NCBI GenBank assembly: GCA_046593725.1
Contig: JBKJQY010000021.1
Coordinates: forward strand, 12,179-76,178
DNA: 64,000 bases
Reading direction: 5' to 3'
From: Candidatus Limnocylindrales bacterium
GTDB lineage: Bacteria; Chloroflexota; Limnocylindria; Limnocylindrales; CSP1-4
Both the position numbers and the translations under genes were made by a program. This document shows positions 2,235-41,469 of this stretch, piece by piece. Numbering within the stretch: position 1 is the stretch's first letter; the number at the start of each line of letters is the position of its first letter. The notes under the pieces are model-generated. The model worked only from the letters and a program-made list of their open reading frames with translations, was not told the DNA's origin and searched no databases.

Positions 2235-2824
2235 CGCTTGATTGCCTCCTCGATGGACGATGAGCCGCGCGACATGACGACGGCGCCCGTCCTGACGATT
2301 TCCTTGATCCCGTAGCCGCGGACGAGCGCGACGAAGCCGTCGATCTCAGCTTCCGGGCCTGTTACCTCCACGACCACCGACTCCCCGGCCAGGTCGACGA
2401 CCCGGCCCTTCGACAGCTCGACGAGCTTCAGGATCTCGCCCCGGTTCGAGTCGGTCGCCCGGATCTTCACGAGGGCCAGCTCCTGGGCGACGACGGCCTC
2501 CGCGGTCACGTCCTGGACCTTCAGGACGTCGATCAGGCGATAGAGCTGCTTGGCGGCCTGCTCGACCGCGACGTCGTCCCCGTGGAGGGTGATCGTCATC
2601 CGGCTGACGTCGGGCTGGTCGGTCCGGCTGACGGCCAGCGAGTCGATGTTGAAGTTGCGGGCCCGCATCAGCGACGACACCCGGTTCAGGACGCCGGGCT
2701 TGTCGAGGACGATCGCGATCAGGGTGTGGCGGCGGGTCTCGCCGCCGCCGGGCAGGGAGCGGGCCGGCGGGGGACCGGCAACATGTGCCGGCGCCGTGCC
2801 GTTCGAGCTCGAGTCCGTGCTCAC
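2231..2824 (-). CDS. ilvN: acetolactate synthase small (regulatory) subunit
   Basis: ORF 2231..2842; ACT-domain core [33 protein letters not shown]. Start placed at GTG 2824, which forms a GTGA overlap with the ilvB stop. ATGA overlap with ilvC start. Confidence 0.85.
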
Positions 2825-15798: not shown

Positions 15799-16767
15799 GT
15801 GCAGCGGATCGCCTTCGTCTTTCCCGGTCAGGGCTCGCAGGCCGTGGGGATGGGCGAGGCCCTCAGCGCGTCCTCCCCCGCCGCAGCGGCCGTCTTCGCC
15901 ACCGCCGACGCGGCGCTTGGCGAACCCATCAGCACGTTGGCCTGGGCCGGCCCCGCCGAGCGCCTGGACCTCACCGAGAACGCGCAACCCGCACTCGTGG
16001 CGACCTCGATCGCCATCCTCGCCGGGATCCGCGAGGGGTTCGAGGCCAGCAGACCGGGCATGATCCAACCGGTCTTCGCGGCCGGTCATTCGATGGGACA
16101 GTACACGGCGATGGTCGCGGCCCGGGCCCTGGACCTGGGCGACGCGGTACGTCTCGTGCGCGAGCGCGGCCGACTCATGCAGGCGTCAGGTCAGGGACGC
16201 GACGGCGCGATGGCTGCCCTCATCGGCCTCGATGATGCGAGGCTCCCGGAACTCATCGCCGGCGCAAGCGCCCATGGGGTCTTCGTCGTCGCCAATCGGA
16301 ATGCGCCGGGACAGGTCGTCGTGTCGGGCGAGCGCCGAGCCATCGAGGCGGGCGCCGAGCTGGCACGCACCCTGGGGGCCAAGCGAGCCATCGTCCTGCC
16401 GGTGTCCGTAGCGGCACATTCGCCCCTCATGGCGGAGGCCGCCGACGGCCTGCGGCGGGTCCTCGAGAGCATCGAGTTCCGCGATCCGCTCGTGCCGCTG
16501 CTAGCCAATGCGGACGGCCACCTGATCACGACCGCCGACGAGTGTCGGACCGAACTCGTCGAGCACCTGACCGCCGGTGTCGACTGGGTCGGCGCGGTCG
16601 AGGCGATGACCGCAGCCGGTGTCGACACGTTCGTGGAAGTGGGGCCGGGCAAGGTCCTGACGGGACTCATCAAGCGCATCGCCCCGGAGGCGACCCCCAT
16701 CCCGGCCGACGATCCGGAGATCGTCGTTCGCCTGCTAGCCATCGAATCGGAGGTCCCCAGCGCGTGA
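15799..16767 (+). CDS. fabD: malonyl-CoA:ACP transacylase
   Basis: ORF 15622..16767. Start GTG 15799 gives VQRIAFVFPGQGSQAVGMG; active-site GHSMGQY. Confidence 0.9.
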   Translation: MQRIAFVFPGQGSQAVGMGEALSASSPAAAAVFATADAALGEPISTLAWAGPAERLDLTENAQPALVATSIAILAGIREGFEASRPGMIQPVFAAGHSMGQYTAMVAARALDLGDAVRLVRERGRLMQASGQGRDGAMAALIGLDDARLPELIAGASAHGVFVVANRNAPGQVVVSGERRAIEAGAELARTLGAKRAIVLPVSVAAHSPLMAEAADGLRRVLESIEFRDPLVPLLANADGHLITTADECRTELVEHLTAGVDWVGAVEAMTAAGVDTFVEVGPGKVLTGLIKRIAPEATPIPADDPEIVVRLLAIESEVPSA

Positions 16768-18038
16768 GGAAGCCAGACTACGAACGCCGCGTCGTCGTCA
16801 CCGGACTCGGAGTGATCAGCCCGGTCGGCAACGACCCGAAGACCGCCTGGTCCAACATCGTGAACGGCGTCAGCGGACTCGTGCCGCTGACCCGCTTCGA
16901 CACGACGCCGTATGACGCCAAGTGGGGTGGCGAGGTCCACGATTTCGTCGCCGGCGACTGGATGGACGCGAAAGCCGCCCGCCGCGGGGAGTCCACGATG
17001 GCCTACGGCGTCGCCTCGGCCAAGCAGGCCCTGGCCGATTCCGGGTTCGAGCTGACGGACGAGAACCGCACCGAAGTGGGCGTGGTCTACGGCTCCGGCG
17101 CCGGTGGCCAGCTGCTCATGATCGAGAGCGTCAACAACCTGCGCGAGAAGGGCCCGCGCAGCGTCGCGCCCACGTTCATCGCGAATGCGCTGAACGACAG
17201 CACGTCCGGCATGATCGCCATCGAGACAGGCGCGATCGGGCACAACATCTGCATCGTGTCGGCCTGCGCGACCGGCACCCACAACATCGGGGAAGGTGCC
17301 GAGGCGATCCGTCGCGGCGACTGCATCGCGGTCATCAGCGGGTCCGCCGAGTCGCCGCTGCTCGAGGTCGGCCATGCCGGCTTCTCGAACATGCGCGGCA
17401 TGGGCACGCCGCGACCCGAGGAGCCGTACCAGACCGTGTCGCGACCGTTCGACCTGACCCGAAACGGGTTCATCCTGGGCGAGGGCGCCGCATCGCTGTT
17501 CCTGGAGGACCTGGAGTTCGCCAAGGCGCGCGGGGCGCGGATCTACGGGGAAGTCGTCGGGTACGGCTCGGCGGCCGATGGATGGGATATGGTCCAGCCG
17601 ATCGCGGCCGGCGCCGGGTCCGCCCGCGCGATGAAGATGGCCCTGGAGCGTCGCGGGGTGCCCGCGGACGAGGTCGACATGATCAACCCCCACGGGACGT
17701 CGACGCCGCTGGGCGACCTGCGCGAGACCGAGGCGATCCACACCGTCTTCGGCGATCGTGCCAAGGGCGGCGCGCGCGAGGTCTACATCAGTGCCACCAA
17801 GTCGATGACCGGTCACATGATGGGCGCCGCCGGCGCGTTCGAAGCCTTCGCGACCGTCATGTCCGTAGCCGAGCAGACCGCACCCGGCACGCTCAACTAC
17901 CGCGACCCGGATCCCGACTGCGACCTGTGGGTCACGCCCGAGACCCTCGAGATGCCGATCCGGTACGCCCTCTCGAACAACATCGGCCTGGGCGGCCACA
18001 ACGGCGCCGTCATCTTCAAACGCTACGACGGCGACTGA
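16764..18038 (+). CDS. beta-ketoacyl-ACP synthase I/II (FabF/KasA-like), copy 1
   Basis: ORF 16542..18038. GTG 16764 (GTGA overlap with fabD stop) gives VRKPDYERRVVVTGLGVISPVG. Cys (SACATG), His (NPHGTSTP), His (KSMTGHMMGAAG). Confidence 0.9.
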   Translation: MRKPDYERRVVVTGLGVISPVGNDPKTAWSNIVNGVSGLVPLTRFDTTPYDAKWGGEVHDFVAGDWMDAKAARRGESTMAYGVASAKQALADSGFELTDENRTEVGVVYGSGAGGQLLMIESVNNLREKGPRSVAPTFIANALNDSTSGMIAIETGAIGHNICIVSACATGTHNIGEGAEAIRRGDCIAVISGSAESPLLEVGHAGFSNMRGMGTPRPEEPYQTVSRPFDLTRNGFILGEGAASLFLEDLEFAKARGARIYGEVVGYGSAADGWDMVQPIAAGAGSARAMKMALERRGVPADEVDMINPHGTSTPLGDLRETEAIHTVFGDRAKGGAREVYISATKSMTGHMMGAAGAFEAFATVMSVAEQTAPGTLNYRDPDPDCDLWVTPETLEMPIRYALSNNIGLGGHNGAVIFKRYDGD

Positions 18039-18175: not shown

Positions 18176-19444
18176 GTGCCCACCCAGGATCCAGCTCGTC
18201 GCGCCGTCATCACCGGACTCGGCGCCCTCATGCCGAACGGCAACGACTTCCCCACGTACTGGGCCAATCTGGTCGCCGGCGTGACCGGCACGCGGACGAT
18301 CACCGGGTTCGACACCTCGAACCAGGAGGTCCACATCGCGGCGGAGGTCATCGGGTTCGAGCCGAGTTCCGTCATGGACCCCAAGATGGCCCGCCGGATG
18401 AGCCGGTTCGTGCACCTGGCGATCGGGGCGGGCCAGGAAGCCGTCAAGCACTCCGGGATCGACTTCGCGGCCATGTCGCCGGAGCAACTCGACCGGGTCG
18501 GGGTCGTGATGAATACCGGCGGTGGCGGGATCGAGGAGATCATCGACGGCACCCACATCCACGACGGCAAGGGCCCACGGTTCGTCTCGCCGTTCGCGGT
18601 CCCGGCCCTGTCCGGCTCGATGGGCGCCTGCATGCTCTCGATGGAGTACGGCCTGACCGGCCCGGTCATGACTCAGGTCGCCGCCTGCGCCACGTCCGTC
18701 ATCGCCTTCCACGACGCCCTGCGCCTGATCCGTTCAGGTGAGTGCGATGTCGTCCTCGCCGGAGGTTCGGAAGCCCCGATCGTCCCGATGGGCGTGGCGG
18801 CCCTCGCCAACATGGGCGCTCTCTCGAAGCGCAACGACTCGCCGGAAACCGCCTCACGACCGTTCGACGCCACCCGCGACGGCTTCGTCCTGGGCGAAGG
18901 CGCCGGTGTCGTCGTCGTCGAATCCCTCGAACACGCGCTCGCCCGCGGTGCCACACCGCTCGCTGAGATCCTGGGCGGCGCGCTGACCGCCGATGCGTTC
19001 CACATCAGTGCCCCGGAGCCCACTGGCCGCGGCCAGACACGGGCCATGACCCTGGCGCTGCGCAACTCCGAGATCGCCCCCGACGAGGTCGACTACATCG
19101 TGGCCCACGGCACGGCGACCGCCCTCAACGATGTGACTGAGACCCGGGCGATCAAGGCCGCCTATGGGGAGCACGCCTACAAGGTCGCCATCAGTTCGCC
19201 CAAGTCGATGATCGGCCACCTCGTGGGTGCTGCAGGCATCGCCAGCGCGCTGGCGGCCATCGGGTCGATCCGTGATGGCGTCATCCCGCCGACCGCCAAC
19301 CTGCACACGCCGGACCCGGAGTGCGACCTCGACTACGTCCCGCTGACCGCTCGCACGGCGAAGGTCGACACCGTCGCGGTGGATGGATTCGGGTTCGGTG
19401 GTCAGAACGCGGTCGCCGTCTTCCGGCGGGTCACGGACGCCTGA
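18176..19444 (+). CDS. beta-ketoacyl-ACP synthase I/II (FabF/KasB-like), copy 2
   Basis: 422-aa ORF; GGAGGAG 4 nt before GTG 18176. RRAVITGLGALMPNG, AACATS, VAHGTATAL, KSMIGHLVGAAG. Confidence 0.9.
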   Translation: MPTQDPARRAVITGLGALMPNGNDFPTYWANLVAGVTGTRTITGFDTSNQEVHIAAEVIGFEPSSVMDPKMARRMSRFVHLAIGAGQEAVKHSGIDFAAMSPEQLDRVGVVMNTGGGGIEEIIDGTHIHDGKGPRFVSPFAVPALSGSMGACMLSMEYGLTGPVMTQVAACATSVIAFHDALRLIRSGECDVVLAGGSEAPIVPMGVAALANMGALSKRNDSPETASRPFDATRDGFVLGEGAGVVVVESLEHALARGATPLAEILGGALTADAFHISAPEPTGRGQTRAMTLALRNSEIAPDEVDYIVAHGTATALNDVTETRAIKAAYGEHAYKVAISSPKSMIGHLVGAAGIASALAAIGSIRDGVIPPTANLHTPDPECDLDYVPLTARTAKVDTVAVDGFGFGGQNAVAVFRRVTDA

Positions 19445-24291: not shown

Positions 24292-24352
24292 GCTGTGATA
24301 CCCGGACGCGTTGTCGACCTCGTCGCGGACCTCGTCGCGGGACTTCGCCGCT

Positions 24353-24513
24353 GGACCGCCCTGCGGTCCTGTGAGGACCGAGATCTGCACGAGTTACTCG
24401 TGAGGCGTGACGATATCGACGTTGGCCGTCGGATCCAGCCGGTGGCCATGCAGGTTCGTCACGATCGCGGTCCCGCCAGGACCGGAGCGGGACCACGTCG
24501 CGCGCGACAGCCG
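24353..24513 (-). repeat. copy 1 of a duplicated ~150-nt element (decayed small ORF or structured RNA)
   Basis: Ungapped hand alignment to 41279..41444: 116/145 identical. The minus frame is shared with copy 2 but has an in-frame TAA and no canonical start. Confidence 0.6.
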
Positions 24514-25314: not shown

Positions 25315-26484
25315 TCAACCGTCGACGACGTAGAGCTCGCGCGGCGCCTCGTTCATCGCGACCGGGCCGTCTGGGCCGCACACGACGATGTCCTCGATCC
25401 GCGCGCCATACCGTCCGACGAGGTAGATCCCAGGCTCGACCGAGAAGGCCATGCCGGGTCGGAGTGGCTCCGTGTTGCCCGCGATGATGTACGGATCCTC
25501 GTGCGCCTCCAGCCCGATCCCGTGCCCTGTCCGGTGGAAGAATGCCTCGCCGTAGCCCTCGTCATCGATGACGGTCCGGGCGGCGGCATCGACGGCCTCG
25601 CAGGTCACGCCCGGCCGGACCGCGCGGGTTGCAGCCGCCTGCGCCGTGTGCAGGACACCGAACAGATGGCGGAACGCCTCATCGGGTCCCTTGGTAGCGT
25701 CGCCGCCGGTGACCCACAGCGTTCGCGTGATGTCGGATCCGTAGCCGGACAGCCTGCCCCCGATGTCGAGGACGATCGGCTCACCGGCCTGGATGACGCG
25801 CTCAGACGCGTCGTGGTGTGGCGAGGCGGAGTTCGGCCCCGAACCGACGATCGCGAACGACGCATCCTCGTGCCCCTCGGCGAGAAGGCGCTCCTGGACC
25901 TCGCGCGCCACGTCGGCCTCGGTTCGGCCGACCAGCCGACCTGCCGCGATCTGCGCAACGACCCGATCCGCTGCGTGGGCCGCCAGTCGCAGCAGCTCGA
26001 TCTCATCGGGGTCCTTGATCATGCGCAGCTCCCGCAGGACGCTCGAAGCGACGCGGACGTCCGCAGACGAGAACCGCGAATCGGCGCCCAGTGCGGCCTG
26101 CAGCTCCAACAGGTGGCTCGCCCACAGCGTGTCGGAAACGGCGACCCGGGCCACGCCGCCCGGACCGTCGTCGATCCGATCGACGACCAGGCGGTACGGG
26201 TCCGCACCCTCGTCGAAGGTCAGCACCTCCACGTCGCCGTGGACGCCGGCCTCCGCCGCGGCGCGCTCGAGTCGCGGCACGACGATCGCGGCGCCCCGCG
26301 ACGACAGGACGAGCATCGTGAGTCGCTCCAGGGGCATCGCCAGGTAGCCGGTCAGGTAGCGAAGGTCCGGCCCGACACCCACCAGCAGGGCGTCCAGGCC
26401 GTGAGCTCGCGTCGCGGCCAAGGCTCGCTCCAGACGCCCGGCGTGATGCGCGGTCGTGATCACGGGTCGAACGGGGGCACTCAC
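25315..26484 (-). CDS. M24-family Xaa-Pro aminopeptidase/dipeptidase
   Basis: 389-aa ORF; pita-bread metal ligand context DIGGRLSGYGSDITRT, HRTGHGIGLEAHE, EPG. GTGA overlap with the upstream receiver gene. Confidence 0.85.
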   Translation of the reverse strand: MSAPVRPVITTAHHAGRLERALAATRAHGLDALLVGVGPDLRYLTGYLAMPLERLTMLVLSSRGAAIVVPRLERAAAEAGVHGDVEVLTFDEGADPYRLVVDRIDDGPGGVARVAVSDTLWASHLLELQAALGADSRFSSADVRVASSVLRELRMIKDPDEIELLRLAAHAADRVVAQIAAGRLVGRTEADVAREVQERLLAEGHEDASFAIVGSGPNSASPHHDASERVIQAGEPIVLDIGGRLSGYGSDITRTLWVTGGDATKGPDEAFRHLFGVLHTAQAAATRAVRPGVTCEAVDAAARTVIDDEGYGEAFFHRTGHGIGLEAHEDPYIIAGNTEPLRPGMAFSVEPGIYLVGRYGARIEDIVVCGPDGPVAMNEAPRELYVVDG

Positions 26485-30766: not shown

Positions 30767-30955
30767 GGCCCAAGTGTAGTGCGGACGGCCGGAGCGGTCC
30801 CGGGGTGCGGGGCGCCGCCTTCGAACCCCATCCGGTCCTGACAGGACCGCGATCGCCACGAACGAGCGCGCCCAGTCCCCGATTTCGACCGGCGGTCGTC
30901 ACTTCTGCTCACCGTCACGAGGCACTCATCGTGGGTCGGGTCCCGTGAGGACCAC

Positions 30956-31060
30956 GGCGGGAGCGGGGCCGCGGGGGCGGGGCCGCGGGGCCGCGGCAGC
31001 GGGGCGGGGTGCGAGGCGGGCGAGCGGGGCGGGGTGCGAGGCGGGCGAGCGGGGCGGCCG
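30956..31060 (+). repeat. G-rich tandem-repeat block (GGGGCCGCGG units, then a 25-nt unit x2.4)
   Basis: 25-nt unit GCGGGGCGGGGTGCGAGGCGGGCGA at 30999..31023 and 31024..31048, partial to 31057. At least 10 runs of G3-5 on the plus strand. Confidence 0.8.
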
Positions 31061-31098
31061 ATAACGGCCAGATAAGCGTCATGGAGTGAACTACGGTC

Positions 31099-31428
31099 GT
31101 GCCATCGACAGTGTCGCCTCCACGCCACACGATCAGTCAGACCTTCCGACGGATGTGTCGCGACTCGCGGCTCTCGCTCGGCATCACCCAGGAGCGACTT
31201 GCGACCAAGGTCGGCGTGACCCGGAGCCACATCGGAAAGATCGAGCGCGGCGTTGGCAACCCGACGGTCCGCGTGATGGAAGCGATGGCCGAGGCCCTCG
31301 GGATCGAGCTGGACCTGGTCGCGCGGATGCCGATCATCCGCAGCCTCGCGACGCCGTTCATGCCCGGTGCTCGGCCTACGTGGATCGGCGCCTCCGAACA
31401 CTCGATCTTGCCGCGGCCCGTGAGGTAG
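31099..31428 (+). CDS. XRE-family helix-turn-helix protein (probably the 5' half of a frameshifted gene)
   Basis: 109-aa ORF; LSLGITQERLATKVGVTRSHIGKIERGVGNPTVRVMEAMAEALG. After about codon 80 the sequence turns non-descript, while the -1 frame becomes protein-like. Confidence 0.7.
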   Translation: MPSTVSPPRHTISQTFRRMCRDSRLSLGITQERLATKVGVTRSHIGKIERGVGNPTVRVMEAMAEALGIELDLVARMPIIRSLATPFMPGARPTWIGASEHSILPRPVR

Positions 31429-31880
31429 AGGTCGTCCACGGCCGGTCGCACGGTTGGATCGACCTATTGGCATTCGACGAGCGAGCGGGCACGCTATTCC
31501 TGATCGAGATCAAGACGCGACTGCACGATCTGGGTGCGATCGAGCGGCAGCTGAGCTGGTATGAACGGTCGGCCTGGGCGATCGGACGCGGTCAGGGCTG
31601 GTCAGCGCGCGAGGTCCGATCGTGGCTCCTCGTGCTCGCGAGCGAGGAGGTCGAGGCGTCCCTGCGGGCTAACCGGGACCTGTTTGACCATGCCTTTCCG
31701 ACACGGGCTCCGACCATGCTGTCCGATCTCGCCGGCTCGACGCCGCAGCGACAGACCAGACGCGGCCTTGCCATGATCGATCCCGCGAATCGCGGACGTC
31801 AGTGGATGCTCAAGGCACGAATCGATGGCCGACGATCACCCGCCAGGTACGCCGGCTACGCGGACGCCGCCGGTCGATGA
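31380..31880 (+). CDS. PD-(D/E)XK-like nuclease-fold domain (3' half; frame of ORF 31086..31880)
   Basis: …VHGRSHGWIDLLAFDERAGTLFLIEIKTRLHDLG… (D…E-x-K signature). First canonical in-frame start is GTG 31380, but protein-like sequence (RDAVHARCSAYVDRRL) begins earlier. Confidence 0.45.
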   Translation: MDRRLRTLDLAAAREVEVVHGRSHGWIDLLAFDERAGTLFLIEIKTRLHDLGAIERQLSWYERSAWAIGRGQGWSAREVRSWLLVLASEEVEASLRANRDLFDHAFPTRAPTMLSDLAGSTPQRQTRRGLAMIDPANRGRQWMLKARIDGRRSPARYAGYADAAGR

Positions 31881-32021
31881 CCGTCCATGGGATTGACAGG
31901 ACCGTCATCGATACGAACAGGCGTGACCGCGGACTGAAACCGACCTTGATCCCCGGCTCTGCATCAGGCCACGAGGGACTTGTCGAACACCCGGTACTGA
32001 CGGGACCGAAGGGCGAGACGC

Positions 32022-32073
32022 GGGGCGCCGGGCCCGAACGGGGCGCCGGGCTCGCGGGACGCCGGGCTCGAAC
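32022..32073. repeat. about 18-nt tandem repeat x3 (GGGGCGCCGGGCCCGAAC-like)
   Basis: 32022..32039, 32040..32055, 32056..32073. Lies in the convergent gap between the 31880 stop and the aldolase stop at 32088. Confidence 0.7.
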
Positions 32074-32087
32074 GACGCGACCAGCGG

Positions 32088-32846
32088 TCAGGTGCGACCG
32101 GCAGCCGCGAGCATGGCCCTCGCCCCGCTCATGACGAATCCACCATCCGATCCCAGGCCAACGAACGTGAAGCCGCGATCCAGGTGGGGCCCGATGGCGG
32201 CCGGGTCGTACAGCAGGATGCCGGCAGCCTTGCCGTGCGCCAGACAGGCGGCGATGACCTCGTCGATGGCGGCGAGGTAGATCGGGGCGTCGAATTGGCC
32301 GGGGACGCCCAGGGCGTGCGACAGATCAGCTGGACCCACGAACAGGACGTCGGCGCCCGGTTGTGCGGCGATCGCCTCCGCATCGGCGACCGCCGAAGCG
32401 TTCTCGACCTGGAAGACCCCGAGTACGACATCGTTCAGCATGGCGACCTCCGCGTGCGGCACACGCCCAAAGGCCTGGCCGCGAACACCAAGCGCGACCC
32501 CGCGCTGGCCGGCCGGCGGAAAGCGCATCCAGCCCAGGGCCTGGGCGACGTCGGCGGCGCCGTCGACACGCGGGACGACGAGGCCCTGCGCCCCGATATC
32601 CAATGCTCGCGAGACCCGTAGCCGGTCGAGGCTCTGGATGCGGACGAGCGCGGTCGCAGGCGTGTTCCCGATGGCGTAGAGCTGCGGCAGGATGTCGACG
32701 TCGGCGCTCATGCCGTGTTCGCCATCGATCACGAGCCAGTCGAAGCCAGCCTGGCCGGCGATCTCCGCCGCGACCGGCGAGGCCATCGACAACCAGGTCC
32801 CGAAGGTGGTCTCGCCGCCGAGGACGCGTTCGCGCAGGGTGGTCAT
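32088..32846 (-). CDS. HpcH/HpaI-family 2-keto-3-deoxy-acid aldolase
   Basis: 252-aa ORF; FGTWLSMASPVAAEIAGQAGFDWLVIDGEHG…VRI…LDIGAQGLVVPRV. Confidence 0.85.
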   Translation of the reverse strand: MTTLRERVLGGETTFGTWLSMASPVAAEIAGQAGFDWLVIDGEHGMSADVDILPQLYAIGNTPATALVRIQSLDRLRVSRALDIGAQGLVVPRVDGAADVAQALGWMRFPPAGQRGVALGVRGQAFGRVPHAEVAMLNDVVLGVFQVENASAVADAEAIAAQPGADVLFVGPADLSHALGVPGQFDAPIYLAAIDEVIAACLAHGKAAGILLYDPAAIGPHLDRGFTFVGLGSDGGFVMSGARAMLAAAGRT

Positions 32847-32886
32847 GCGCCAATCATGCTCGACCGGTCATGGTCGCGTCGGTCCG

Positions 32887-33266
32887 TTATGGGCCGTTGA
32901 CCAGCCCGGTCGTGTCCACCACCTCGTGGTCGCGGCCCGTGATGACGTCCAGCTGGTGCATGACGTCGTCGTCGAGCGCGGGTCGCTGGCGCCAGACAGG
33001 TACCAGTCAGAGCCGTTGCCGGCGAGAATCATCCTGTAGCGCTTGAGGGCCTCGGCGATGACGCGGGTCTGCGGCGACAGGTGACTCTTGTCGCAGCTGG
33101 CCTTGAGGCGGACGCGCTGGCCCATCGGCGGCAGCGACGTCGAGGACGCCTCCCCAGCCTGGTGGCGCGCCGGGTATCTGTAACTCGTTCGAGTCCGGTC
33201 TGTGGTGAACCGGAGCGCGTGCAGGATCTGCCCGGCTGCCAGGGAGGCCCGTCGACGGGGCGCCAT
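32887..33266 (-). pseudogene. frameshifted 3' remnant of a conserved hypothetical gene
   Basis: Tail of ORF 32868..34391 reads …ILHALRFTTDRTRTSYRYPARHQAGEASSTSLPPMGQRVRLKASCDKSHLSPQTRVIAEALKRYRMILAGNGSDWYLSGASDPR, then degenerates to S/T/R/W. Shifting one frame at about 32975 gives DDDVMHQLDVITGRDHEVVDTTGLVNGP* (TAA 32887..32889). Confidence 0.35.
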
Positions 33267-33452
33267 CCCGAGATCATCGATGGTCTCCGCCGGCAGCGGG
33301 ACCCACCAGGTCGTCGCGGCGGTCGGATCCCGTGGTCCGGTTTCCGACTGGCACCACGCCACTTGCGACGGGGGCGAGATTGAACCTTTTGGCAGGTGCC
33401 ACCATCTGTACCGGTGAAGCACCCACTCGGGTGCCGTGTGGAGAGACCGCAT

Positions 33453-34004
33453 ATGCGGACGAGGCTGGTCGAACAGGCGAGGGATGGCGACGATGTCGCC
33501 TTCTCCGAGCTCGTCGACCTGGAGGGTGACCTCTGCTACGCCATCGCCTACCGGATCCTGCGCGATGTCGAGCGGGCCCAGGACGCCGTCCAACAGGCAT
33601 TCCTCCTCGCCTGGCGGGAACTCCCACGGTTGCGCGAGGCCGAGCGCTTCGGTCCATGGCTCCATCGGCTCCTCGTCAACGCCTGTTACGAGGAGTTGCG
33701 CCGACATCGGCGCTGGAGCACCCGCATCAGGGCACTCCCGGTCGACGGACCAGGAGGACCCGATACCACCGTCTCGGTCGACGACCGGGACACGCTTGAT
33801 CGGGCGTTCGTTCGGCTCACCCCGGAACACCGCTCGGTCTTTGTCCTGCACCACCATGCCGGACTTCCCCTGGCTGAGATCGCCGACATCGTCGGTGTCC
33901 CGGTCGGGACGGTGAAGTCCCGGCTGCACTACGCAACCCGAACCCTGCGCGCGGCGATCGTCGCCGATAGCCAGGTCGAATCCACGGAGGCACGACCGGC
34001 ATGA
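33453..34004 (+). CDS. ECF (group IV) sigma factor, paralogue A
   Basis: ORF 33396..34004. ATG 33453 preceded by GGAGAG. Region 2 (AQDAVQQAFLLAWREL…) and region 4 (LPLAEIADIVGVPVGTVKSRLHYA). Confidence 0.85.
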   Translation: MRTRLVEQARDGDDVAFSELVDLEGDLCYAIAYRILRDVERAQDAVQQAFLLAWRELPRLREAERFGPWLHRLLVNACYEELRRHRRWSTRIRALPVDGPGGPDTTVSVDDRDTLDRAFVRLTPEHRSVFVLHHHAGLPLAEIADIVGVPVGTVKSRLHYATRTLRAAIVADSQVESTEARPA

Positions 34005-34762
34005 CGACACCACGCGATCCCGACGAGATCCTGGCCGCGTGGCTGGACGAGGGGCCGACCCGGCTCCCCGACCAGACCCGACGGGCGATCTCCGTCGCCC
34101 TACCAACCACTCCCCAACGACGGCGCGGCTGGTCCGTGCCCTGGAGGACACAACCGATGAACCAGACCACCAAGTTCGCTTTGGGCCTTGTCGCCGTCGT
34201 GGCGATCGCGGCGGGCGGGCTGTACCTGACCAGACCGGCGACTGCACCCGCCGTTGGGGGTCAGGCGAGCCCGTCGCCGACGGCACCGCCGACCCCTTCG
34301 TCGGCCCCGTCGGCGGGAGCGGTGACGTCCGGCGCGCCATCCGGCAGCCTTGGCGACGACCCCACGATCCTCTCGGTCGTGGCGACCGCAACCGGTTGCA
34401 GCGCAGATCCAGTCCAACTTGCGAGCGGACCGCTCGCGCCCGAGACCCAAGGCTGGATCTCCGTCACGAATGATTCGCCACGCTCAGTGTTCTTCCAGCT
34501 GAACGATGCGCCTACCGCAGCGAAATACGAGGAGTTCAGGCTCTACATGCAGGCCGAGCACGAACGTGTGCTCGCTGGACAAGCCCTGAAGGGTCCGGCC
34601 ACGTTCGTCGGCTTCGGGGCCAGTCGGCTCGTGCCCGCGGGCGCGACCGACCGGTTCCGGGCGCCGACGCAGGTAGGCTTCTATGGCATCGCGTGCGACC
34701 CAGCGGATGGCAACAATGTCTTGGATGTGTACCTGGTCGGGCCCTTGGAGGTCGCGCCGTAG
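34001..34762 (+). CDS. anti-sigma-like single-pass membrane protein with extracytoplasmic domain
   Basis: 253-aa ORF; ATGA overlap with the sigma gene. The N-terminus parallels that of the 37345 gene (…WL.EGPT..PD…PWR…M). One TM helix, a Pro/Ser/Thr linker, then a C-terminal domain. Confidence 0.6.
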   Translation: MTTPRDPDEILAAWLDEGPTRLPDQTRRAISVALPTTPQRRRGWSVPWRTQPMNQTTKFALGLVAVVAIAAGGLYLTRPATAPAVGGQASPSPTAPPTPSSAPSAGAVTSGAPSGSLGDDPTILSVVATATGCSADPVQLASGPLAPETQGWISVTNDSPRSVFFQLNDAPTAAKYEEFRLYMQAEHERVLAGQALKGPATFVGFGASRLVPAGATDRFRAPTQVGFYGIACDPADGNNVLDVYLVGPLEVAP

Positions 34763-34780
34763 ACGCCGCCTCGGGGCGGC

Positions 34781-36010
34781 TCAGTCCGGGAACGCCTCCG
34801 GTCCGCGCTCGCTGAGTTCGCGGGCCTCACCGGAGGCGTCTTCGGCCGGTAGCCAGCTGTACGGGTAGCGGGCATCTTCCAGGGCGGCGGCTTGCCGCGT
34901 GATCTTGAGGGGATGGAAGGTGTCCACCATGACCGCCAGCTCTTCGGTCGCGTCCTTGCCGATGGAGGCTTCCGCGGTCCCCGGGTGCGGTCCGTGCGGG
35001 ATCCCTGCCGGATGGAGCGTGAAAGAGGAGATCCCCACGCCGCGGCGGCTCATGAAGTTGCCGGCCACGTAATAGATGACCTCATCGCTGTTGATGTTGC
35101 TGTGGTTGTACGGCGCCGGGATCGCCAGCGGGTGGTAGTCGAACTTGCGCGGTACGAACGAGCACACGACGAAGTTCCGCGCCTGGAACGTCTGGTGCAC
35201 GGGCGGCGGCTGGTGGACGCGCCCGGTGATGGGCTGGAAGTCCGCGATGTTGAAGGCGAACGGCCACAGGTAGCCGTCCCAGCCGACCACATCGAACGGA
35301 TGGAACGTGTAGTGATAGGCGGTCAGCCGGTTGCGCATCTTGACGTGGACGCGGAACTCGCCCTCGTCGGTCCGGGGCGGGACGTCGTCCGGGAGCCGGA
35401 TGTCGCGCTGGCCGTACGGGGCGTGCTCCAGCAACTGCCCGTAGTCGTTGCGATAGCGCTTGGGCGCCTCGATCTCGGACGGGCACTCCAGGTACAGCAT
35501 CCGCTGCTCGCTGCCAGGGTCCGGAGCCAGTCGCCAGGTCGTGCCGATGGGCAGGACGAGATAGTCGCCCGGTCCATAGCGAATCGGCCCGAACACCGTG
35601 TCCAGGAGGCCGCTCCCCTCGTGGACGTAGAGCATCTCGTCCGCCTCGCCGTTTCGGTAGAAGACGTTCTCCGGCATCTCGTCGGCCGGTCGGACGACGC
35701 CCATCGCGACGTCGTTGTTGAAGAACAGCGGGATCCGGCCGGTGACGGCGTCGCCGTGTGGTTCGACTCCCGAAGCGTCGATCAGTCGGTGGTGGTGGTA
35801 CCCGTCGTCCGCTTCCTCCAGCTCAAGGTGGGCGCCGATGATCGGTTCGATCCGGTGGGTCCGGGTCGGCGGCGTGACGTGATACAGCAGCGAACTCCGC
35901 CCAGTGAACCCCTCCACGCCGAACAGCTCCTCGGCGTAGAGCGAGCCGTCGGCGGCGCGATGCTGCGTGTGGCGAGTGGGCGGGATGCTGCCGTGGGCCG
36001 CGTAGAACAT
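34781..36010 (-). CDS. hmgA: homogentisate 1,2-dioxygenase
   Basis: 409-aa ORF. Resembles bacterial HGD throughout (…EELFGVEGFTGRSSLLYH…, …FRVHVKMRN…, …FVPRKFDYHPLAIPAPYNHSNINSDE…). Confidence 0.85.
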   Translation of the reverse strand: MFYAAHGSIPPTRHTQHRAADGSLYAEELFGVEGFTGRSSLLYHVTPPTRTHRIEPIIGAHLELEEADDGYHHHRLIDASGVEPHGDAVTGRIPLFFNNDVAMGVVRPADEMPENVFYRNGEADEMLYVHEGSGLLDTVFGPIRYGPGDYLVLPIGTTWRLAPDPGSEQRMLYLECPSEIEAPKRYRNDYGQLLEHAPYGQRDIRLPDDVPPRTDEGEFRVHVKMRNRLTAYHYTFHPFDVVGWDGYLWPFAFNIADFQPITGRVHQPPPVHQTFQARNFVVCSFVPRKFDYHPLAIPAPYNHSNINSDEVIYYVAGNFMSRRGVGISSFTLHPAGIPHGPHPGTAEASIGKDATEELAVMVDTFHPLKITRQAAALEDARYPYSWLPAEDASGEARELSERGPEAFPD

Positions 36011-40840: not shown

Positions 40841-41185
40841 CTACGAGACAGGCGCGGCGACGATATCGCCACCGCCCATCAGGGTCAGCGTGCCATCGGC
40901 TGCGACCGTCCAGGTCGTCGAGGCCTGCAGCGCCGCCGTGAACGCCGTCTCCTGACCGCCGACCGGCCCTTCGCTTGCCATCATGGTCAGGGCCAGGGGT
41001 CCGAACGTCAGTGCGGCGCCATCGACCGGGTACGCACCGTTGTCGGTGTTGCAACCGGTCGTCCCGGTGACCATCCCATCGGCCCCGTGTCGCAGCGTCG
41101 GCGGTGTCGCCCGAAGCGTGTCGGTCGCCAGTCGTGGACGCATGTGCCGGGGCTCCAGGTTCGAAGGGAGACGGGACCGCTTCAA
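40841..41185 (-). CDS. META (HslJ-like) domain protein, no obvious signal peptide
   Basis: 114-aa ORF; …DGMVTGTTGCNTDNGAYPVDGAALTFGPLALTMMA…. The N-terminus looks non-native, so the start is uncertain. Confidence 0.5.
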   Translation of the reverse strand: MKRSRLPSNLEPRHMRPRLATDTLRATPPTLRHGADGMVTGTTGCNTDNGAYPVDGAALTFGPLALTMMASEGPVGGQETAFTAALQASTTWTVAADGTLTLMGGGDIVAAPVS

Positions 41186-41268
41186 CGCGGCGACGAAAAG
41201 GGTGCGGAATGTCCTTCGGCAGGCATTGTAGGCATCAGACGGCCCATTTCGAACGCTCGGCAGACCGA

Positions 41269-41451
41269 TCAGCCCATAGGGCCGCCCTTCGGTCCTGTGG
41301 GGACCGTGATCTGCACGAGCTCTTCGTCAACGTTGACGATCTCGACGTTCGATGTCGGATCTGGCCGATGGCCATGCACGTTCGCCACGATCGCGGTCCC
41401 TCCAGCATCGGAGCGGTCACGAGCGGTCGCCGCGAGGCCAGCCGCCGTCAC
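41269..41451 (-). other. copy 2 of the duplicated ~150-nt element; contains an intact 60-codon ORF
   Basis: ORF 41269..41451: MTAAGLAATARDRSDAGGTAIVANVHGHRPDPTSNVEIVNVDEELVQITVPTGPKGGPMG. About 80 % nt identity to 24353..24513. Confidence 0.4.
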
Positions 41452-41469
41452 GCCCTGACGAGGCCGCGG

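Follow-up and report, generated by a model that had tools for sequence, protein, structure and literature searches.

Between the gene for 4-hydroxyphenylpyruvate dioxygenase (hppD) and a META-domain gene, a 64,000-nucleotide stretch of Candidatus Limnocylindrales DNA (here called the window) contains a segment, positions 41269 to 41451, whose nature is the question addressed here. In an initial annotation it was taken for the second copy of a duplicated ~150-nt element and read either as an intact 60-codon ORF or as a structured RNA. The ORF does exist on the minus strand, from GTG 41451 to TGA 41269, and its translation was confirmed as given. Both neighbours were likewise borne out by domain and homologue identification, with hppD upstream and the META-domain gene downstream. 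Close HppD homologues bear names that point to Candidatus Limnocylindrales (Chloroflexota) as the host and not to Actinobacteria. The question is whether the segment is a gene, an RNA or neither.

The duplication itself is readily recovered. A direct-repeat finder returned 24353-24490 against 41279-41416 as the longest ungapped direct repeat in the window (138 nt, 82-83% identity). By our own count 114 of 139 positions are identical over 41279-41417, and a MAFFT alignment agrees. The similarity had been drawn from 41279 to 41444 (against 24353 to 24513); the match stands but its right limit was too generous, as similarity fades beyond ~41417. Elsewhere in the window, direct-repeat families D5-D7, spaced by ~1.4 kb, correspond to two tandem beta-ketoacyl synthase paralogues at 16542-18038 and 18176-19444 (+), which are preceded by an acyltransferase gene and a MarR regulator gene.

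The initial annotation had noticed no other non-coding pair of this similarity in the window, but the pair does not stand alone. With copies 1 and 2 as its sole input, an HMM picked out two further, more diverged members on the minus strand: copy 3 (~31874-32023, E = 4e-7) and copy 4 (~30823-30962, E = 9e-6), which were then delimited at about 31879-32019 and 30824-30965. The family has at least four copies in the 64-kb window, each of ~140 bp. A spaced motif drawn from these four copies (GGTCCNNNNNGNACC-N60-90-GTTCGNNNCGATNNCGGTCC) matched exactly the four in the window and gave no match in 100 shuffles. Moreover, related copies were seen, via nine short ORF calls, on at least nine other public contigs (ENA and NCBI). 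Eight copies were available as DNA, namely the four in the window and one on each of the contigs L124, L125, L126 and L127, and these were used for two eight-sequence alignments (A7 and A8). Coordinates of the last four refer to their own contigs.

24353..24493 (+): copy 1, between convergent neighbours, an MFS/cNMP-binding transporter gene and an unknown 222-aa gene
41279..41419 (+): copy 2, between the hppD stop and the META-domain gene, both genes on the minus strand; nhmmer E = 4.5e-37
31879..32019 (-): copy 3, diverged, 50-58% identical to the others; between the stop of an HTH gene and the stop of an HpcH/HpaI aldolase gene
30824..30965 (-): copy 4, diverged, 54-59% identical to the others; between divergent CBS-domain and HTH genes
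873-1012: L124 copy, between an alpha/beta hydrolase stop and tRNA-Glu
1583-1709: L125 copy, between peptidase S41 and SmpB genes
1358-1485: L126 copy, between peptidase S41 and SmpB genes; 98% identical to the L125 copy
775-907: L127 copy, between an ABC ATPase gene and a LysM protein gene

Copies 1, 2, L124, L125 and L127 share 73-84% identity with one another; for copies 3 and 4 the identity drops to 50-59% against the rest and is 56% between the two. At 50-84% identity overall the copies are old and diverged, and the window has no near-identical pair of the kind that would demonstrate recent transposition. Small duplications also arise within copies: the one underlying protein P0129 (on an ENA contig), which is close to that of L124, has 15 nt repeated in tandem and in frame (PDPTS PDPTS) within the element.

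Wider searches returned little. The strict spaced motif had no match in 185,579 species-representative genomes, and in JGI metagenomes it gave only two doubtful matches (L001 and L002), which were judged to be chance or pattern-enforced and were rejected as family members; the source genome is in neither of these two collections. With a looser motif, species-representative genome and viral contigs yielded chance matches only, agreeing just in the enforced right arm. No match to copy 1 was found by blastn in plasmid and phage collections, and no copy lies on contig L014, which reaches 2 kb past the window. A limited literature search found no published account of such a repeat family in Limnocylindria. 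From these searches, the family appears to be narrow in distribution.

All eight copies are intergenic, and seven of them lie 0-80 nt past a stop codon, as calculated from gene and copy coordinates. Their orientation relative to the flanking genes goes either way: the strand that carries the peptide sense is the sense strand of the flanking genes in copy 2, L125 and L126, and the antisense strand in L124. The neighbouring genes are unrelated between copies (tRNA-Glu/hydrolase, peptidase S41/SmpB, ABC ATPase/LysM).

Several features of the immediate surroundings were recorded. In L124 a tRNA-Glu(CTC) gene (722-798, -) is 75 nt away from the repeat, and the tRNA, the repeat and the hydrolase gene together sit between two DUF1015 genes (21-698 and 1918-2742, both -). 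A single DUF1015 gene split by insertion was considered and rejected, as both genes begin at profile position 1 and are paralogues. Tandem GC-rich duplications adjoin copies in the window (30975-31060 and 24317-24340), with CCCCGCTCGCCCGCCTCGCACCCCG present twice beside copy 4 and GACCTCGTCGCG twice beside copy 1; the 9-mer GGCGCCCCG is found twice on the outer flank of copy 3 and once on that of copy 4. A Logan contig of the same organism (L003, equivalent to window 32069-34808) ends 46 nt from copy 3, which could be an assembly break at the repeat. The ends of other short-read contigs do not coincide with repeat copies.

The substitutions between copies 1 and 2 had been taken as a sign of protein-level constraint, a claim that did not survive closer inspection. 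Mismatches between these copies have no three-base periodicity (9:6:10 over codon positions 1:2:3), and the annotated frame is broken in two of the four window copies, by an in-frame TAA in copy 1 and, in copy 4, by a 1-nt insertion with a stop after it. Mean pairwise variability at codon positions 1, 2 and 3 is 0.27, 0.38 and 0.32, respectively; position 2 is the most variable, the opposite of what purifying selection on a protein produces. For the five close copies, the median dN/dS (Nei-Gojobori) is 1.3 in the annotated frame and ranges from 0.8 to 1.3 across the six frames. It is therefore highly improbable that the minus-strand ORF represents a family of small-protein genes encoding a peptide of ~40-60 aa with the core NVHGHRPDPTSNV-IV-VHEELVQITVLTGPQGGP, even though the annotated frame is open in six of the eight copies and gene callers placed ORFs in it on nine other contigs.

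These ORF calls came from protein searches. Run exhaustively against 1.84 billion representative proteins, phmmer returned six short ORFs (38-75 aa, 62-77% identical to the query), and a profile search raised the number of homologous ORF calls to nine, up to 105 aa in length and 59-83% identical to the query in the annotated frame. However, predicted starts and stops are not conserved between calls over different copies. A word-indexed search of 5.8 billion proteins with the 60-aa peptide returned nothing, the ORF itself included, and the window's own ORF is absent from a collection of 15 billion proteins. No Pfam match was found for the peptide, which the initial annotation had likewise been unable to place in a family, or for five of the homologous ORF calls. 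The segment might also have been the relic of a larger gene, which the same phmmer search spoke against, as it returned no long protein containing the peptide; a 1037-aa match (P0123) proved to be unrelated repetitive sequence. Moreover, one plus-strand frame is equally open, in five of five close copies (dN/dS 1.05), so openness reflects the GC-rich sequence rather than coding. By these comparisons the protein reading is largely refuted, and the ORF at 41269..41451 (-) is judged to be a chance open frame over a GC-rich repeat; it would be a by-product of the open frames that occur in 70%-GC DNA.

What the copies do have in common is a palindromic architecture. In each copy five short palindromes follow one another. 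GGTCC-N5-GGACC units, inverted relative to each other and 104-105 bp apart from start to start, form the outer pair, and the three inner palindromes of copy 2 span 41314..41373.

41291..41305: left-arm palindrome of copy 2, GGTCC-N5-GGACC
41314-41328: inner palindrome of copy 2, CACGAG/CTTCGT
41338-41361: inner palindrome of copy 2, GATCTCGAC/GTCGGATC
41363-41373: inner palindrome of copy 2, GGCC-GAT-GGCC
41394..41410: right-arm unit of copy 2, CGGTCC-N5-(GGACCG), second half degenerate, 104 bp from the left unit
24365-24379 and 24469-24483: exact GGTCC-N5-GGACC units of copy 1
30834-30848 and 30939-30953: exact GGTCC-N5-GGACC units of copy 4
31993-32007: left unit of copy 3, with one mismatch; the right unit of copy 3 is degenerate

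The arms of copy 1 (~30 nt, 75% complementary) form the longest inverted repeat in the window, i.e. terminal inverted repeats are present. As the outer units are inverted and ~104 bp (ten helical turns) apart, the arms can also pair into one long hairpin. Unlike classic REP singlets, single GGTCC-N5-GGACC units are not enriched in the window outside the four copies.

The palindromes are also the conserved part of the element. The eight-copy alignment has 41 invariant columns against 26 +/- 3.4 expected, and variability in stem columns is half that in loops and linkers (0.20 versus 0.40, permutation P < 1e-4, with the stems defined on these same sequences). Conserved half-sites are GGTCC / GGACC at both ends, CACGAG / CTCGTG, GTCG, GG.C..GC, GTTCG and CGAT..CGGTCC. 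The lower variability of the stems and the excess of invariant columns therefore indicate that the palindromic units are under constraint. Such a pattern would be expected if the units were recognised as sequence plus shape, in the manner of REP recognition by its transposase or of sites bound by dimeric proteins.

Conserved stems could equally be looked for in an RNA, and the element does fold strongly. Minimum free energies range from -63 to -78 kcal/mol with z-scores of -2.8 to -4.8, and both strands fold far beyond shuffles (copy 2: -2.8 on the minus strand, -4.3 on the plus strand). Within the fold originally drawn by hand, the closing helix and the UGGCC/GGCCA hairpin are present in predicted folds, but the GUCAAC/GUUGAC hairpin occurs in copy 2 only. 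Foldability is nevertheless weak evidence for an RNA, because any palindrome folds. If the element were a structured non-coding RNA, its hairpins would act in 3′ or 5′ UTR transcripts or from a promoter of their own, for example as a 3′-end stabiliser, an attenuator or a small-RNA family; REP elements can act in the first two ways. The position of seven of the eight copies just past a stop codon is in keeping with such a role, and so is the greater conservation of stems than of loops. However, the orientation of the element to flanking transcription is inconsistent between copies. Copies 1 and 2 showed no terminator-like site, and the element itself no promoter-like site, the single match lying outside it at 41252-41225 (-).

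Two fold models fit the alignment, one with long-range arm-arm pairing and one with five local hairpins. Under the first, paired cells amount to 84.0% against 83.5% in shuffles (130 of 500 shuffles reach the observed value), the covariation score is 0.110 against 0.101 (118/500), and 18 of 36 pairs depart from pairing solely via broken pairs. Thus covariation in this model is not above that of shuffles, and most changes break pairs. The five-hairpin model does marginally better: 87.9% of cells are paired against 86.6% (24/500), the covariation score is 0.124 against 0.101 (25/500), and there are four double-change cells where 1.3 are expected (7/500). This signal is, however, within the range that the tool quotes for unconstrained related sequences, and eight sequences give little power. 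Individual compensatory changes can be found, namely GC to AT at A8 columns 60/84 in copies 3 and 4, TA to AT at columns 62/82 in copy 3, and GC to AT at columns 119/131 in L127. G-T and A-C cells are balanced (16 versus 11 and 12 versus 7), so that neither strand looks like a selected RNA strand, as expected for a DNA palindrome. As read from these alignments, pairing is maintained by sequence conservation and not by compensation.

Searches against known RNAs gave a similar picture. No Rfam 15 family matched anywhere in the window at the gathering threshold, and around the element at E <= 10 there was only a spurious miRNA match, which lies outside it. A hammerhead-like reading of CUG...CACGAG/CUCGUG...AAC was rejected, its core being incomplete and without an Rfam match. 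The RNA function raised as a possibility in the initial annotation thus retains the strong folding on its side and lacks support from Rfam, covariation, strand bias and orientation; on this balance we regard it as unlikely. The more general description of the segment as a repeated, strongly folding, non-annotated element is supported. ARAGORN placed a tRNA-Ser at 2608-2706 (+), inside the acetolactate synthase small subunit gene, and a tRNA with a 4-base anticodon at 25823-25918 (-), inside an M24 peptidase gene; because both lie within well-supported coding genes, these calls are probably false positives.

The window was compared with an 80-kb ENA contig (L005) whose HppD protein is 96% identical. 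The two share 81-88% DNA identity in most collinear blocks, and less in paralogous sigma-factor matches. No copy of the repeat was found in L005 within +/-10 kb of hppD, and likewise none in L013, whose HppD is 90% identical. Copies 2, 3 and 4, the three that belong to the region open to comparison, fall exactly in breaks of collinearity with L005, in two segments.

30803..32086: segment of 1.28 kb absent from L005, comprising copy 4, an HTH_3 gene and copy 3, with the copies in the same orientation
41085..41468: non-collinear segment with copy 2; L005 has 1.85 kb in its place, with the META 5′ part, a sigma factor gene and a 297-aa gene

The L005 equivalent of 30803-32086 is 26 nt between collinear blocks, and the HpcH-CBS spacer there is 63 nt. 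The comparison shows lineage-specific presence at rearrangement points; as the genomes are ~18% diverged, it does not imply recent transposition, and the absence from L005 could be loss rather than gain. Copies 3 and 4 differ strongly from copies 1 and 2 as well as between themselves, from which we infer that the 1.28-kb segment may have arrived with its own versions of the repeat.

The gene enclosed by this segment (31099-31880, +) encodes an HTH_3 (XRE) domain and an unassigned C-terminal domain. The HTH domain is in the frame that starts at 31099 and the C-terminal two-thirds are in another (ORF 31086-31880), pointing to a frameshift near 31340-31370, from assembly error or in a pseudogene. 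The C-terminal part contains a D...ExK-like motif (GWIDLLAFD...LFLIEIKT), suggesting a PD-(D/E)xK nuclease fold; searches of Pfam, NCBIfam, PHROGs, PDB sequences and plasmids (tblastn) returned the HTH domain only or nothing. At the other break, the META-domain gene (40841-41185, -) lacks the lipoprotein-like signal region present at the N-terminus of its L005 counterpart, and homology ends ~173 nt into the L005 gene. A single rearrangement may have both cut off its 5′ end and eliminated the sigma factor gene together with the adjacent 297-aa gene. Outside the repeat, in the stretch from copy 2 to META, is a sigma-70-like promoter match (TCGAAA-16-TACAAT, 41225-41252, -) from which META could be transcribed independently of hppD.

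Two copies in the same orientation that bracket a one-gene segment missing from a relative recall a gene cassette, and the repeat might be an attC-like site, with the HTH gene between copies 3 and 4 as an inserted cassette bounded by two such sites. attC sites are imperfect palindromes that keep architecture rather than sequence, and ~140 nt is within their length range. Copies 3 and 4, only 56% identical, similarly have the same short motifs at fixed spacing. However, attC sites have R'' (RYYYAAC) and R' (GTTRRRY) core sites at their ends and their arrays adjoin an integron integrase. Inspection of the aligned ends and flanks of the element found neither RYYYAAC nor GTTRRRY core sites, and there is no integrase, tyrosine recombinase or other recombinase in the window. 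Moreover, copies 1 and 2 each stand alone, as do the four metagenomic copies, and the enclosed gene runs opposite to the orientation of the element. A cassette origin of this kind is very unlikely.

Taken together, these data point to a family of ~140-bp non-coding, imperfectly palindromic intergenic repeats in Candidatus Limnocylindrales (Chloroflexota), which is probably REP/BIME/REPIN/MITE-like and has spread at the DNA level. Such a family would spread and persist as DNA, like REP doublets (REPINs), BIMEs and MITEs. The repeat would be non-autonomous: an enzyme acting in trans, with its gene at another place in the genome, would recognise the palindromic units, and the repeat would insert into intergenic DNA, mostly just 3′ of genes. 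Both the mobility of the element and the nature of the mobilising enzyme are what we infer from this pattern. A Pfam search found no transposase, RAYT or recombinase among ~56 scanned ORFs of the window. No consistent direct repeat that could be a target-site duplication was found in the 70-nt flanks of the eight copies, a weak negative given that the exact termini are uncertain.

The closest known systems differ in how far they resemble the repeat. [quoted passage not shown] The repeat resembles them in having two short inverted imperfect palindromes (exact in copies 1 and 4, partly degenerate in 2 and 3) around a less conserved spacer, and in having complementary ends from which the whole unit can form a hairpin, with 84% of cells paired in the long-range model. 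It is also strictly extragenic and non-coding, and copies within one genome differ. In contrast to REPINs, the 89-bp spacer itself holds three conserved small palindromes. REP-RAYT systems have tens to hundreds of extragenic copies per genome, with a single-copy RAYT (Y1/HUH transposase) gene that is typically flanked by repeats. Here the count is four copies in 64 kb of an uncultured Chloroflexota host, without a RAYT among the window's ORFs or an excess of single units.

The BIME and ERIC (IRU) elements of enterobacteria are imperfect palindromes of ~100-130 bp, often in transcribed regions. Like these, the repeat has several palindromic units and is intergenic, 3′ of genes and in either orientation. 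There is no sequence similarity and the phylum is different; the likeness rests on sequence architecture and not on IHF or gyrase binding or transcription. MITEs such as Correia, RUP and Nezha have terminal inverted repeats, a target-site duplication flanking each copy and a cognate autonomous insertion sequence whose ends they share. The repeat is similarly small, non-coding and dispersed, has terminal inverted repeats and is absent from the corresponding sites of a relative. However, it has no recognisable target-site duplication, its copies are far more diverged than those of a typical recent burst, and we know of no parent insertion sequence whose ends match it. With attC it shares an imperfect palindrome of up to ~140 nt, architecture conserved over sequence, and two same-orientation copies that bracket one gene; it differs in having no R''/R' core sites, no integrase nearby and mostly solitary copies. 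On balance the family is classed as working like a REPIN or BIME, its membership being putative.

A more specific form of this reading would make the repeat the cis-acting site of a DNA-mobilisation system in Limnocylindria, either a REPIN-RAYT-type partnership or a cassette system in which copies 3 and 4 delimit and carry the HTH gene. The five-palindrome architecture would then be a recognition platform. This is a speculative proposal, and we consider it quite unlikely.

For annotation, reading the locus as a palindromic intergenic repeat means that ORF 41269..41451 should not be called a gene, and the ORF calls over other copies (P0121-P0130) are probably spurious. For the organism, the repeats described here are new and lineage-restricted palindromic intergenic elements in Limnocylindria, an uncultured but widespread class of Chloroflexota. 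Since copies coincide with breaks in synteny, the repeats may be markers, or a cause, of local rearrangement and of assembly breaks in these MAGs. Discovery of a partner enzyme would extend REPIN-like systems to another phylum.
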